From a virus: a stretch of DNA of 64,000 nucleotides. Location: positions 32,001-96,000 of the IMG/VR virus record IMGVR_UViG_3300023202_000142, one strand, 5' to 3'. Position 1 is the first letter of the stretch; every line of letters begins with the position of its first letter. Under the pieces are notes generated by a model. It was not told the DNA's origin and searched no databases. It saw only the letters and a list, made by a program, of their open reading frames with translations. Positions 26,623 through 30,244 of the stretch are shown here, piece by piece. The position numbers and the translations under genes were made by a program.

Positions 26623-27078
26623 ATGACAGAAGAAACCGTCAATCTCGCTGACATTGTCCAGTTCGCCTCGCAGCACTGGGTAGAACTGGGCACCGGGGCC
26701 GCAGCGGTGACCGCTACAATCTTCCTGGTCGAACTGGGTAAGGGCTGGTTGAAGCTGTGGGTCGCGGATCGTGGCTACTCCGAGCAGTTCGAGGAGAACG
26801 CCGTCCGAACCCTGGTCTTTGCGCTGTCGGTGCCAGTCGCCTGGCTCCTCGAATTCGGCAAGACCTGGGAGTCGTTCTTCGGTAGACCCATGGGCACCGG
26901 CGCCGAGCTGTTCGTTGGCGGAGCCATCACAGCGATCATTAGCATCGTGGTTTACCTGTTCATCCACCGCATTGAACCGATCGAGGTAGCCAGACTGAAG
27001 CTCTACAAGTGGCTGAAGGTCAGCCCCGGCGAAATCGAGAAGGCCCGAAACAACCGACGCGACCAAAAAGGTTCTTGA
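26623..27078 (+). CDS. membrane protein with about 3 TM segments, possible holin
   Basis: hydrophobic segments and basic C-terminus. Confidence 0.5.
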   Translation: MTEETVNLADIVQFASQHWVELGTGAAAVTATIFLVELGKGWLKLWVADRGYSEQFEENAVRTLVFALSVPVAWLLEFGKTWESFFGRPMGTGAELFVGGAITAIISIVVYLFIHRIEPIEVARLKLYKWLKVSPGEIEKARNNRRDQKGS

Positions 27079-27104
27079 CCGCATCGCGACCCCGTCGCTA
27101 CAGT
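27075..27104 (+). promoter_or_regulatory. promoter of tRNA array 1: TTGACC-N18-TACAGT
   Basis: hexamers directly after the upstream stop codon. Confidence 0.7.
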
Positions 27105-27116
27105 CGTCGTCACGGG

Positions 27117-27224
27117 ATGCGACCGGCCACCTTGGAACGAAAACATGATGCAATCATTGCCCAGTCAGATTTGCTCCTCGCTGCTTCCGAGCAGCCACTG
27201 GAGGCGTCTGCGCTGAGCGACTGA
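27117..27224 (+). CDS. putative leader peptide 1, 35 aa (MRPATLERKHDAIIAQSDLLLAASEQPLEASALSD)
   Basis: ATG about 6 nt after predicted +1; Leu/Ser/Gln/Pro-rich distal half; stop about 21 nt before terminator. Confidence 0.6.
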   Translation: MRPATLERKHDAIIAQSDLLLAASEQPLEASALSD

Positions 27225-27276
27225 ATACATCGTTCAAGCCGAAGAAGCCTCCAGTCACTGACTGGGGGCTTTTTTC
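27197..27276 (+). terminator. attenuator 1: terminator GCCTCCAGT-cactg-ACTGGGGGC plus U-tract; antiterminator ACTGGAGGC at 27197-27205
   Basis: 27197-27205 is a perfect 9-nt complement of terminator 5' arm 27247-27255. Confidence 0.75.
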
Positions 27277-27281
27277 GTTTG

Positions 27282-27303
27282 GGTCTTTGACAACTGAAGA
27301 TGA
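27282..27303 (+). promoter_or_regulatory. boxA-like antitermination element GGTCTTTGACAACTGAAGATGA
   Basis: resembles rrn spacer boxA (TCTTTGAAAACT); near-identical copy at 29184-29205. Confidence 0.6.
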
Positions 27304-27308
27304 TGTAA

Positions 27309-27382
27309 GCCCGGGTAGGCTAACTGGCAACGCCGCGGTCCTAAGAAGGCCGTGAGTGTGGGTTCGACTCCCACCCCGGGTA
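27309..27382 (+). tRNA. tRNA-Leu(AAG), short variable loop
   Basis: cloverleaf; CGGTC-ctAAGaa-GGCCG; A73. Confidence 0.8.
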
Positions 27383-27384
27383 CT

Positions 27385-27456
27385 GCTCCCGTACCCCAAC
27401 GGCAGAGGAGCGGCCTTAAAAGCCGTCGAGTCCGGGTTCGATCCCCGGCGGGAGCA
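27385..27456 (+). tRNA. tRNA-Leu(TAA), short variable loop
   Basis: GCGGC-ctTAAaa-GCCGT; TTCGA T-loop. Confidence 0.85.
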
Positions 27457-27458
27457 TG

Positions 27459-27531
27459 GCGCCCATAGGCCAACAGGAAGAGCCGCGTGGTTCAAACCCC
27501 GTGGGTCCAGGTTCGATCCCTGGTGGGCGCA
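27459..27531 (+). tRNA. tRNA-Leu(CAA), bulged anticodon stem, short variable loop
   Basis: acceptor GCGCCCA/TGGGCGC; loop ttCAAac. Confidence 0.7.
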
Positions 27532-27535
27532 TGAT

Positions 27536-27621
27536 GGAGGGTTGGCAGAGCGGTAATGCATCGGTCTTGAAAACCGACGAGTCCCTGACGGGGCGCGAGG
27601 GTTCGATCCCCTCACCCTCCT
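27536..27621 (+). tRNA. tRNA-Ser(TGA)
   Basis: TCGGT-ctTGAaa-ACCGA; long variable arm. Confidence 0.92.
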
Positions 27622-27625
27622 CTGA

Positions 27626-27697
27626 CTGGGTGTGGGCCAGTGGTTGGCCACTTGCTTTGGGAGCAAGGTTACGGGGGTTCGAATCCCTCCACCCAGA
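27626..27697 (+). tRNA. tRNA-Pro(TGG)
   Basis: CTTGC-ttTGGga-GCAAG. Confidence 0.9.
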
Positions 27698-27770
27698 TGA
27701 CCTGTAGCTCAATTGGCAGAGCACTGCACTTTGACTGCAGTGGTTCGAGGTTCGAATCCTCGCAGGTCAA
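27698..27770 (+). tRNA. tRNA-Gln(TTG)
   Basis: CTGCA-ctTTGac-TGCAG; U1-A72. Confidence 0.92.
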
Positions 27771-27773
27771 TGC

Positions 27774-27844
27774 GGCGACGTGTGCGAGTGGTTAGCGCTC
27801 GGATTGCAAACCCGAGGACGCGGGTTCGAGTCCCGCCGTCGCCT
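27774..27844 (+). tRNA. tRNA-Cys(GCA)
   Basis: loop ttGCAaa; U73. Confidence 0.9.
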
Positions 27845-27845
27845 T

Positions 27846-27930
27846 GGAGCAGTGGCAGAGTGGCAATGCAGCGGGTTGCTAACCCGTAGGTCGTTTCGAC
27901 GGCCCGGGGGTTCGATCCCCTCCTGCTCCG
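27846..27930 (+). tRNA. tRNA-Ser(GCT)
   Basis: loop ttGCTaa; long variable arm; G73. Confidence 0.92.
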
Positions 27931-28000
27931 TATCTCACTGAAATCGAGCTGGAATCAGCTCGGAGCTGGCTGCTAGGGTCGGGTAACCCTGGAGGCTCAG

Positions 28001-28273
28001 ATGACTCTGACAGAACACGTGGACCTTCTCCTCGAAGCGCGCATGTCGTCGCGGGAGCAGAAGCTAGTCGGTAACATGTTGGTGGGCATGGAGATGGAAG
28101 AATACGGTGGCAACACCGAGCGCTTCTACCGCTGGATCGAGCGGAAGACGGATGAATTCCTGGAGGAACTCTACGCAAGGCTCGAAGGTAACGTGCGCGA
28201 AGCCGACCGGAAGAGGCTAACATCGCTAAAGGCCAGGGAGTACATTGCATTGCACAACATGGCGCTAACCTAG
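28001..28273 (+). CDS. tagged hypothetical protein (MTLTEHVDLLLEA)
   Basis: GGAGG SD; tag. Confidence 0.75.
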   Translation: MTLTEHVDLLLEARMSSREQKLVGNMLVGMEMEEYGGNTERFYRWIERKTDEFLEELYARLEGNVREADRKRLTSLKAREYIALHNMALT

Positions 28274-28569: not shown

Positions 28570-28980
28570 ATGAGAGACATTCTGAACCGCTTACTGAGTA
28601 GACTGCCCCACCAGTGGGCTCGTGATGCCTCGACCGGCCAACACGCCCTCCTGGAGGCTGTGAGCTTCGAATTGCAGCGCATCTATGATCGAATCGGCGG
28701 TCGGCCCGATCAAATCGTGTTCGAACGCGTCGATCTGATGAACCCCTCACCCGACGATGTCCTGGTGTTGACCATGAAGGTCCCGACATCATTCGGGATC
28801 ACGAACTGGATCGACCAGGCGCAACGGATGAGTGATGACCTCAAGGATGCCCTGGGGGTTCGTGAAATCATCGTACTGCCAGACATCGTACACATCGAAA
28901 ACCTGGGTAATCTCGACGCCAACACCGCAAAAGAGCTTGGGAAGCTCAGGAATGTCATCGCGGCACTGAAGGGTGCTTGA
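28570..28980 (+). CDS. hypothetical protein
   Basis: SD AGGAG. Confidence 0.65.
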   Translation: MRDILNRLLSRLPHQWARDASTGQHALLEAVSFELQRIYDRIGGRPDQIVFERVDLMNPSPDDVLVLTMKVPTSFGITNWIDQAQRMSDDLKDALGVREIIVLPDIVHIENLGNLDANTAKELGKLRNVIAALKGA

Positions 28981-29005
28981 CGACCGAATCCAGGTTCAGT
29001 AGGGT
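28977..29005 (+). promoter_or_regulatory. promoter of tRNA array 2: TTGACG-N17-TAGGGT
   Basis: canonical spacing; overlaps upstream stop as in array 1. Confidence 0.75.
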
Positions 29006-29018
29006 TCGTTTTGAAGCA

Positions 29019-29120
29019 ATGCTCACTGCCCGAGAAGGACAGATGCTTTCAACACGGATGGAAACAGGTACGGATAATCGCTGGACCGGGACGCCCCGGG
29101 CCGGAGGCGATGTCGTGTAA
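29019..29120 (+). CDS. putative leader peptide 2, 33 aa (MLTAREGQMLSTRMETGTDNRWTGTPRAGGDVV), not in ORF track
   Basis: ATG about 7 nt after predicted +1; Thr/Met/Glu/Asp/Asn/Trp-rich centre; stop 23 nt before terminator. Confidence 0.6.
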   Translation: MLTAREGQMLSTRMETGTDNRWTGTPRAGGDVV

Positions 29121-29175
29121 CTGTTGTTCATCGACATGAGTCTAGGCCCGGAGGAAACCCCTCCGGGCCTTTTCT
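29096..29175 (+). terminator. attenuator 2: terminator AGGCCCGGAGG-aaacc-CCTCCGGGCCT plus U-tract; antiterminator CCGGGCC at 29096-29102
   Basis: 29096-29102 is complementary to 29145-29151. Confidence 0.7.
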
Positions 29176-29183
29176 CGTTCTGG

Positions 29184-29205
29184 GGTCTTTGAAAATTGAA
29201 GATGA
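29184..29205 (+). promoter_or_regulatory. boxA-like element GGTCTTTGAAAATTGAAGATGA
   Basis: 20/22 identical to 27282-27303. Confidence 0.6.
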
Positions 29206-29209
29206 AAAG

Positions 29210-29281
29210 TGGTCGGTAGCTCAGCGGTAGAGCGTCGGGTTGTTAACCCGAGGGTCGTGGGTTCGAGCCCCACCCGGCCAG
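29210..29281 (+). tRNA. tRNA-Asn(GTT)
   Basis: TCGGG-ttGTTaa-CCCGA; G73. Confidence 0.93.
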
Positions 29282-29285
29282 TTCA

Positions 29286-29358
29286 GCCCCCTTGGCCCAG
29301 TGGCTAGGGCAACCCGTTGTCTGCGGGAAGATCGTCGGTTCGACTCCGACAGGGGGCG
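29286..29358 (+). tRNA. tRNA-Asp(GTC)
   Basis: loop ttGTCtg; G73. Confidence 0.88.
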
Positions 29359-29376
29359 CTGGGGGCAACCCCATGA

Positions 29377-29450
29377 AGCGGGATAGAGCAGTCTGGTAGC
29401 TCGTCGGCCTCATAAGCCGAAGGCCGGGGGTTCAAATCCCCCTCCCGCTA
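29377..29450 (+). tRNA. tRNA-Met(CAT), initiator-like
   Basis: fMet-type D arm and TTCAAAT loop; A1-U72; anticodon stem TCGGC/GCCGA. Confidence 0.85.
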
Positions 29451-29451
29451 C

Positions 29452-29515
29452 TGAGTGCGCACATCGACCAAGGCGGTCCTAGATCACGGGTACGCGGGTT
29501 GGTGAAGGCGGCTCA
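29452..29515 (+). ncRNA. unassigned hairpin RNA of about 64 nt inside the tRNA array
   Basis: TGAGT/GCTCA and CATCGACC/GGTTGGTG stems; not a cloverleaf. Confidence 0.4.
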
Positions 29516-29517
29516 AT

Positions 29518-29591
29518 GCCAGTGTAGCTCAATCAGGCAGAGCAGCTCCCTTGTAAGGAGAAGGCTGGGGGTTCGATTCCCTTCACTGGCT
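29518..29591 (+). tRNA. tRNA-Thr(TGT)
   Basis: loop ctTGTaa. Confidence 0.9.
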
Positions 29592-29595
29592 TAGC

Positions 29596-29668
29596 GTCGC
29601 CGTCATCTAGTGGCCCAGGATGCCGGGTTTTCAGTCCGGTCACGGGGGTTCGAGTCCCCCCGGCGATA
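29596..29668 (+). tRNA. tRNA-Glu(TTC)
   Basis: CCGGG-ttTTCag-TCCGG. Confidence 0.88.
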
Positions 29669-29672
29669 CTGT

Positions 29673-29746
29673 AGGGAGCGCGCGCTGGGTACGCGGTCTG
29701 GCCTCCAAAGCCGGACGACAGCTCGGATCGTCACCGAGGCTCTCTG
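29673..29746 (+). tRNA. tRNA-Trp(CCA) with atypical T-loop ATCGTCA
   Basis: loop ctCCAaa; CTCGG/CCGAG T stem; G73. Confidence 0.75.
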
Positions 29747-29751
29747 TGTGC

Positions 29752-29843
29752 AGGCGTGGCCCGCCAGAGCTGGAGAGCTGGGCCGGGCTGTAAACCCGGT
29801 GCACCCAAATAAGACTGAGTGGGTTCGACTCCCACCTCCCCTA
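29752..29843 (+). tRNA. tRNA-Tyr(GTA), atypical (two acceptor mismatches); possibly pseudo-tRNA
   Basis: perfect CCGGG-ctGTAaa-CCCGG and T arm; degenerate acceptor and D arm. Confidence 0.55.
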
Positions 29844-29853
29844 TGGAGAATGC

Positions 29854-30069
29854 ATGACACGCAACGATGACATCACCCCCTACGCGCGGCGCATCAGGCG
29901 TATGCTGCATGAGCGCATGAACCCCGAAGCGGTCGAGGTCGAGGTCGAGATCATGCGACGTCTTCGTGAGACCTCCGAGCGCAGTGTCTACCACCGCGCC
30001 ATGCTCACGCCCCTACCTGTTGAGTCTGGAGGTGCCGCGTTTCTGCGGCGCGACAAACCCGAGGAGTGA
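29854..30069 (+). CDS. hypothetical protein
   Basis: GGAG SD, 71 aa between tRNAs. Confidence 0.55.
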   Translation: MTRNDDITPYARRIRRMLHERMNPEAVEVEVEIMRRLRETSERSVYHRAMLTPLPVESGGAAFLRRDKPEE

Positions 30070-30074
30070 GGTTC

Positions 30075-30148
30075 GGGCCGGTAGCTCAGTTTGGCAGAGC
30101 GGCGGATTCTTAATCCGCAGGTCGAGGGTTCGATCCCCTCCCGGCTCA
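30075..30148 (+). tRNA. tRNA-Lys(CTT)
   Basis: GCGGA-ttCTTaa-TCCGC. Confidence 0.93.
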
Positions 30149-30152
30149 CTTC

Positions 30153-30228
30153 GCGCCCGTAGCTCAACTAGGTTCAGAGCATTCGACTTTTAATCGAAGG
30201 GTTCTCGGTTCGATTCCGAGCGGGCGTG
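30153..30228 (+). tRNA. tRNA-Lys(TTT)
   Basis: TTCGA-ctTTTaa-TCGAA. Confidence 0.93.
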
Positions 30229-30244
30229 CTGTACGATCCCTTCC

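Follow-up and report, generated by a model that had tools for sequence, protein, structure and literature searches.

Predicted leader-peptide attenuators upstream of tRNA arrays in a phage genome

Why phages carry tRNA genes has been an open question for more than 50 years, the ideas on offer being codon compensation, replacement after decay of host RNA and escape from tRNA-cutting defences (PMC10264068). The window, a 64,000-nucleotide stretch corresponding to bases 32001-96000 of a 185-kb virus record (IMG/VR IMGVR_UViG_3300023202_000142), has a GC content of approximately 59% and contains 16 tRNA genes in two arrays (Table 1), with genes for ThyX and guanylate kinase upstream of the tRNA region and phage helicase genes further on. 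A search across viral contigs with ThyX patterns identified no close relative of this phage (the best homologues of its ThyX are 61% identical), no homologue was found for the protein encoded at 26623-27078, and a blastn search against phages returned matches to tRNAs or generic terminators only. With no close relative on record, assessment of the locus relied on its own layout, on comparison with the second array and on analogous loci in other genomes.

A sequence-only reading of the window had proposed that array 1 is preceded by a promoter, a short leader ORF, an intrinsic terminator and a boxA-like element, which together would form an attenuator. Promoter-like hexamers with an 18-nt spacer are present, and promoters occupy the same position in other leaders, but the match is weak when taken alone (six sites of this quality occur against 3.0 expected); transcription would start at approximately 27110-27112. 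The terminator was recovered by folding as a stem followed by a U run, with a free energy of -19.5 kcal/mol for the core and -24.4 kcal/mol with flanks, and the leader as a whole has a structure z-score of -4.45; a simple terminator scan did not list this stem. Comparison with the Rfam leader families (Trp, His, Leu, Thr and Phe leaders and the T-box) gave no leader hit at the gathering score or at E ≤ 5.

Table 1. Features of the two leaders and tRNA arrays (positions in the window)
Feature	Position	Strand	Remarks
Sigma70-type promoter, leader 1	27075-27104	+	-35 at 27075-27080, -10 at 27099-27104; 9/12 match
35-codon ORF of the sequence-only reading	27117-27224	+	Frame overlaps 27145-27216; probably not the sensor
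Leader peptide ORF 1, proposed sensor	27145-27216	+	Two tandem ATG, 23 codons
Control codons, leader 1	27151-27195	+	14/15 Gln/Ser/Leu/Pro/Cys, nearly all different codons
Antiterminator hairpin, leader 1	27197-27255	+	Segment 2 (27197-27205) with 27247-27255; -31.1 kcal/mol
Intrinsic terminator, leader 1	27245-27278	+	12-bp stem 27245-27271, then U run
boxA-like element, leader 1	27281-27303	+	Core 27284-27295; common to leader 2
tRNA array 1	27309-27931	+	Leu-AAG, Leu-TAA, Leu-CAA, Ser-TGA, Pro-TGG, Gln-TTG, Cys-GCA, Ser-GCT
Promoter-like site, leader 2	28977-29005	+	-35 at 28977-28982, 17-nt spacer, weak -10 at 29000-29005; below scanner threshold
Leader peptide ORF 2	29043-29120	+	25 codons; Shine-Dalgarno -4.9 kcal/mol; in-frame ATG also at 29019 and 29058
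Antiterminator segment and terminator, leader 2	29094-29175	+	Segment 29094-29102, terminator 29144-29175
boxA-like element, leader 2	29183-29205	+	
tRNA array 2	29210-30229	+	Asn, Asp, Met, Thr, Glu, Trp, degenerate Tyr-like gene, ORF, two Lys

As judged from codon content, the sensor of array 1 is most likely ORF 1 and not the 35-codon ORF to which the sequence-only reading had assigned this role; ORF 1 lies in the +1 frame relative to the latter and had been missed. It is preceded by a weak Shine-Dalgarno sequence at approximately 27134-27136 and an A-rich spacer (duplex -3.3 kcal/mol). Codons 3-17 form the control region, in which a single Ile is the sole exception, and the amino acids carried by array 1 are exactly the five that the other control codons specify, Cys included. 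Relative to the phage proteome, in which these five amino acids account for 24%, a match of this size has a probability of 2.8e-8; none of 2,000 shuffles reached it, the best giving 12/15 in any frame. ORF 1 ranks first among the 3,442 short ATG/GTG ORFs of the genome for its match to array 1, each of the eight anticodons of the array has an exact or wobble codon within it, and the switch window of leader 1 has 0 of 13 codons for the amino acids of array 2.

The fold geometry suggests how reading of these codons could be coupled to termination. As the earlier reading had noted, 27197-27205 (segment 2) is a perfect 9-nt complement of the 5′ arm of the terminator (27247-27255), whose own 3′ arm includes one G-U pair; a complement of this length arises in 44 of 20,000 shuffles. 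The antiterminator and terminator are mutually exclusive, as both use 27247-27255. A role for 27161-27165 as segment 1, also proposed earlier, was not upheld, since the predicted protector fold pairs part of segment 2 (27200-27203) with 27174-27177; this candidate protector is a long fold over 27145-27232 that contains only 4 nt of segment 2. Folding with ribosome-footprint constraints was performed as a ribosome walk, in which the partial nascent transcript is folded ahead of a moving ribosome (three footprint lengths, 7-13 nt). With the A site at or before 27184-27187, the 5′ arm of the terminator is predicted to be sequestered (P approximately 0.98), and once the A site is at 27193 or beyond, the stop codon included, it is in a free-to-pair state (sequestration approximately 0.05). 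In this model, a stall on the control codons frees segment 2 and a ribosome at the stop codon covers it, in agreement with the attenuation scheme put forward earlier. The switch point falls where the control region ends, and of the 13 codons that precede it 12 are cognate to the array. When no ribosome is included, the favoured fold switches between protector and antiterminator as the transcript lengthens. Equilibrium folding of the full-length leader is noisy and the terminator often wins despite a stalled ribosome, so that the attenuation model needs co-transcriptional kinetics.

Downstream of the terminator, both the boxA-like element and the eight tRNA genes described earlier were confirmed. 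The boxA-like 23-mer has two hits in the 185-kb record, each before a tRNA array, and none in shuffles; it lies directly upstream of stable-RNA genes, as in rRNA operons. The third tRNA gene, Leu-CAA, has an irregular anticodon stem with a bulge, and ARAGORN reads an 8-nt anticodon loop. All three Leu tRNAs (27309-27531), of which Leu-AAG is a rare type in bacteria, are short, at 73-75 nt, lack a long variable arm, and are best matched among phages by the Leu cluster of cluster C mycobacteriophages. Two hairpins followed by a 90-aa ORF are located 3′ of array 1 (region 27932-28273).

Array 2 serves as an internal replicate, with a leader of its own that is rich in Thr, Met, Glu, Asp, Asn and Trp. 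In the switch window of leader 2, 8 of 13 codons specify Asn, Asp, Met, Thr, Glu or Trp (P=0.009; within the top 5 of 3,442 ORFs) and two of 13 an amino acid of array 1, and in the ribosome walk leader 2 behaves like leader 1. It contains no Lys or Tyr codon and has Leu, Ser, Arg and Gly codons for which array 2 provides no tRNA. The Tyr(GTA)-like gene (29753-29841) has a mismatched acceptor stem and falls below the Rfam cut-off; a 65-nt hairpin between tRNA-Met and tRNA-Thr (29452-29516) is not a tRNA (z -2.3); and a 71-codon ORF splits the array (region 29854-30229), with the two Lys tRNAs following it. Two single tRNA genes elsewhere in the genome, inspected by eye, have no such leader.

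Pattern scans of other viruses and metagenomes for a boxA accompanied by a U run or a tRNA T-loop identified 40 terminator-boxA-tRNA loci, of which 36 contain an ORF whose end lies 15-45 nt upstream of the terminator; dereplication reduced these to 28. These ORFs were picked by geometry alone, and the best frame was allowed equally for real and permuted leader-array pairs. The leaders match their own arrays in codon content: the summed match was 52.7 compared with 3.7±6.8 for the null (n=26), which none of 100,000 permutations reached, with the caveats that the loci were chosen by boxA, that certain arrays are truncated where a locus ends and that the scoring window was defined with the data in view, albeit identically for the null. 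When the present window was excluded, the 11 multi-amino-acid arrays gave 31.0 compared with 6.5±4.8, again with 0/100,000 permutations. The position of the stop codon is also constrained, as 20 of 26 fall within an 8-nt band (-33 to -26 from the terminator) of the 31 positions allowed; the stop codon of ORF 1 is at -29, and the range elsewhere is -18 to -38. Of the 28 leaders, 19 have antiterminator pairing that outperforms 90% or more of their shuffles, and in one homologous leader family the control region has indels of 3 and 6 nt that keep the frame. At the level of isoacceptors, the match across loci is suggestive but not significant (46/67 versus 40.9 expected, z=1.4). Some T4-like contigs (L077, L088 and L089) have a second promoter between terminator and boxA, through which the array can bypass the attenuator.

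Similar leaders were found in cultured phages and in a bacterium. In Caulobacter phage RB23 (MZ574433, leader at approximately 84.6-84.8 kb), a promoter, a 32-codon leader, an antiterminator and a terminator precede a Tyr/Val/Ile/Gln/Asn/Arg/Phe array, and the leader has 15 consecutive codons cognate to this array together with the same fold switch. RB23 has at least three codon-matched leaders (L373:3350-3560, L377:2786-2906 and L379); a clear U-tailed terminator is present in the first only, and a boxA of this type was not seen in RB23. Mostly CGT, CGC and CGA codons lie ahead of its array with Arg-ACG, and AGA, AGG and CGG codons ahead of the Arg-TCT/CCG pair, a codon usage that hints at tuning to isoacceptors. 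Mycobacteriophage Colt (MK359359, approximately 28.57-28.72 kb; L374:2097-2250) has short, probably leaderless ORFs that match its own Ser/Leu and Gln/Asn arrays, and matched ORFs of this type, also probably leaderless, occur at L380:600-720 and L381:440-500; the tRNAs that follow these ORFs are Ser/Leu, Pro/Trp/Tyr and Gln/Asn, and an intrinsic terminator is lacking. Since Colt lacks a U-tailed terminator, a different output step is likely. In Colt-type leaders, the region following the stop codon could form a duplex with the 5′ strand of the first tRNA; this pairing suggests control of tRNA folding or of Rho access. In an 813-kb Acidobacteriaceae genome contig (a metagenome-assembled genome; L338:7227-7407), a leader lies inside an array of at least 24 tRNAs with an HNH-like gene, which indicates that the system also occurs outside virus records. 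The leader family of L338 also occurs in L304, L301, L296, L313, L204 and L031, likewise within long tRNA arrays; besides the bacterial contig, it is represented on metagenome contigs and in virus records, and the attenuator would thus move with the tRNA array. No such leader was present in the stretches viewed of Streptomyces phage Sham and Rhizobium phage IC12. Taken together, the codon statistics, the geometry of the folds, the matched leader of array 2 and the numerous independent loci give good support to the proposal that the tRNA array is under attenuation, and the attenuator, as predicted, is real and widespread.

Three other explanations of leader 1 were weighed. That the 35-codon ORF is the sensor after all, with its Leu run as control codons, is very improbable. 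It exists as an open frame in all-frame translation, its stop codon at -21 is inside the range seen elsewhere, six Gln/Ser/Leu codons precede the switch point, and a near-leaderless start is conceivable with an ATG about 5 nt from the likely start site; this ATG, however, is 12 nt past the -10 box, compared with 7 nt in the leaderless leaders of RB23 and Colt, and Shine-Dalgarno pairing is lacking (duplex +0.9 kcal/mol). The switch-competent part matches array 1 at only 8 of 23 codons (P=0.17) and contains no Cys codon, and codons 2-16 score 3/15 against 14/15 in the +1 frame. The earlier count in favour of this ORF, 12/19 of codons 16-34 for Leu, Ser, Gln and Pro versus 3/19 for the amino acids of array 2, is arithmetically correct but does not identify a sensor, because the window was chosen post hoc and six of the 12 matches lie at or after 27192, where they are discounted since a ribosome in this position already destroys the antiterminator. 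Its Leu and Ser codons are what a shifted Ser/Leu/Pro/Cys stretch yields, and the ORF most likely arises as a by-product of the true leader (27145-27216) read in a shifted frame, although it may be translated at a low level.

A leader that monitors the general health of translation, and that would open the array upon any slowing or uncoupling of the ribosome with the codon match of secondary importance, is improbable. In the folding model, any stall upstream of 27187 favours the antiterminator, a sampler of approximately 13 different codons could be triggered by many stresses, and a tRNA array of Anabaena is induced by general translation stress (PMC8421152). Such a sensor would not need array-specific codon sets, whereas the two arrays of this genome have mutually exclusive sets and the match of leaders to their own arrays holds across phages. 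The least probable explanation, and one we consider extremely unlikely, is the absence of regulation, in which case the terminator would be constitutive and leaky, or would close a small RNA or peptide gene, with the array expressed by read-through or from an internal promoter. The highly structured leader and the strong promoter used for tRNA-Tyr by T5-like phages (PMC11555353) would fit this explanation, as would a perfect -35 hexamer at 27287 within the boxA of array 1; no -10 box lies 16-18 nt from this hexamer (0-1 of 6 positions), and an internal promoter in boxA was rejected on this basis. No Rfam family fits the leader, and the codon match and the fixed distance from stop codon to terminator would be left unexplained.

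Ribosome-coupled attenuation of array 1 through the frame that begins at 27145 is very probable in light of the sequence and the folding model, and the tRNA set would probably be made only when ribosomes read its codons slowly. Host sigma70 RNA polymerase would start at approximately 27111, and a ribosome would start at 27145 or 27148 and read a codon sampler for the amino acids of the downstream tRNAs. With fast reading, the ribosome is predicted to reach 27190-27216 and cover segment 2, so that the terminator forms and the array is off. With a stall at 27151-27187, when the cognate aminoacyl-tRNAs are scarce, segment 2 would pair with the 5′ arm of the terminator and allow read-through. The polymerase would then meet the rRNA-type boxA, where host NusB/NusE are probably recruited to shield the untranslated tRNA transcript from Rho. 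The new tRNAs would relieve the stall, giving a negative-feedback loop, and array 2 would be governed by an equivalent switch tuned to the amino acids that it serves. The input is likely to be a loss of functional host tRNA, through decay of host RNA or tRNA-cutting defences, which is favoured because extra tRNA would not cure plain amino-acid starvation. As the matching is significant at the amino-acid level only, we infer rather than read from the codons a role for anticodon nucleases as the trigger, which is plausible.

Among the leaders of amino-acid operons in E. coli, thrL and that of ilvGMEDA are multivalent and trpL, hisL and leuL respond to a single amino acid; in the pheM/pheST attenuator, charged tRNA acts through a leader peptide to adjust how much of a translation component is made. 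The phage leaders resemble pheM/pheST in their predicted dependence on charged tRNA, but the latter controls a synthetase, responds to one amino acid and is located on the host chromosome. Attenuators of amino-acid operons, including the above and Caulobacter ilvBN (PMC4117421), have the same promoter and short ORF with control codons, the same location of segment 2 in the 3′ end of the ORF, mutually exclusive antiterminator and terminator, and read-through upon stalling. The present leaders differ in that they are viral, have tRNA genes rather than biosynthetic enzymes as output, sample at least five amino acids with mostly non-repeated codons instead of tandem runs, have a boxA after the terminator and show no sequence homology (no Rfam leader hit). 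In the trn operon of Anabaena PCC 7120, normally silent extra tRNAs are switched on under translation stress and a DNA repressor has been proposed; this inducible array is alike, and HNH-containing arrays resemble locus L338, but attenuation, a leader or a terminator are not mentioned (PMC8421152). The tRNA-Tyr of T5 and SP15 counters retron-Eco7, its expression being ascribed to a strong promoter (PMC11555353), and evasion of anticodon nucleases has been hypothesized for phage tRNAs (PMC10264068); replacement of host tRNA is the probable purpose here as well, whereas those reports contain no sensing mechanism. Closest to the Colt leaders are the leaderless polycysteine sORF attenuators of mycobacteria, which have codon-matched sensor ORFs but act on mRNA translation by masking of the ribosome-binding site, not on tRNA transcription (10.1101/834739). 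The boxA of rRNA operons, the site of NusB/NusE, is a similar motif before an untranslated stable-RNA block (PMC4807359), whereas the phage element sits after an attenuator terminator, and Nus binding to it is predicted from motif and position. A literature search, in which subscription journals are thinly covered, found no paper on attenuation of tRNA genes; the corrected sensor frame, the permutation test across loci and the cultured models are new here.

If an array is on only while ribosomes are slow on its cognate codons, this favours replacement of tRNAs on demand, and the rival ideas on phage tRNAs become directly testable. Textbook attenuation would be extended beyond the enzyme operons of hosts to tRNA genes and to viruses; RB23 and Colt bring tests within laboratory reach, and the leaders could report damage to the tRNA pool. 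A broader reading, that large phages and some mobile bacterial arrays survey the host tRNA pool and turn on a block only when the tRNAs it replaces are destroyed, for example by anticodon nucleases, has somewhat less than an even chance in our estimation. If true, it would represent an inducible, self-limiting counter-defence made from RNA and the ribosome alone, and leader codons would reveal which tRNAs are attacked by host defences.

A Trp codon often occurs near the switch point even where the array has no tRNA-Trp (L031, L085, L110, L089, L084 and L304), and the window has one at 27199 and another at 29082; this recurrence may reflect G-rich pairing or a second signal.
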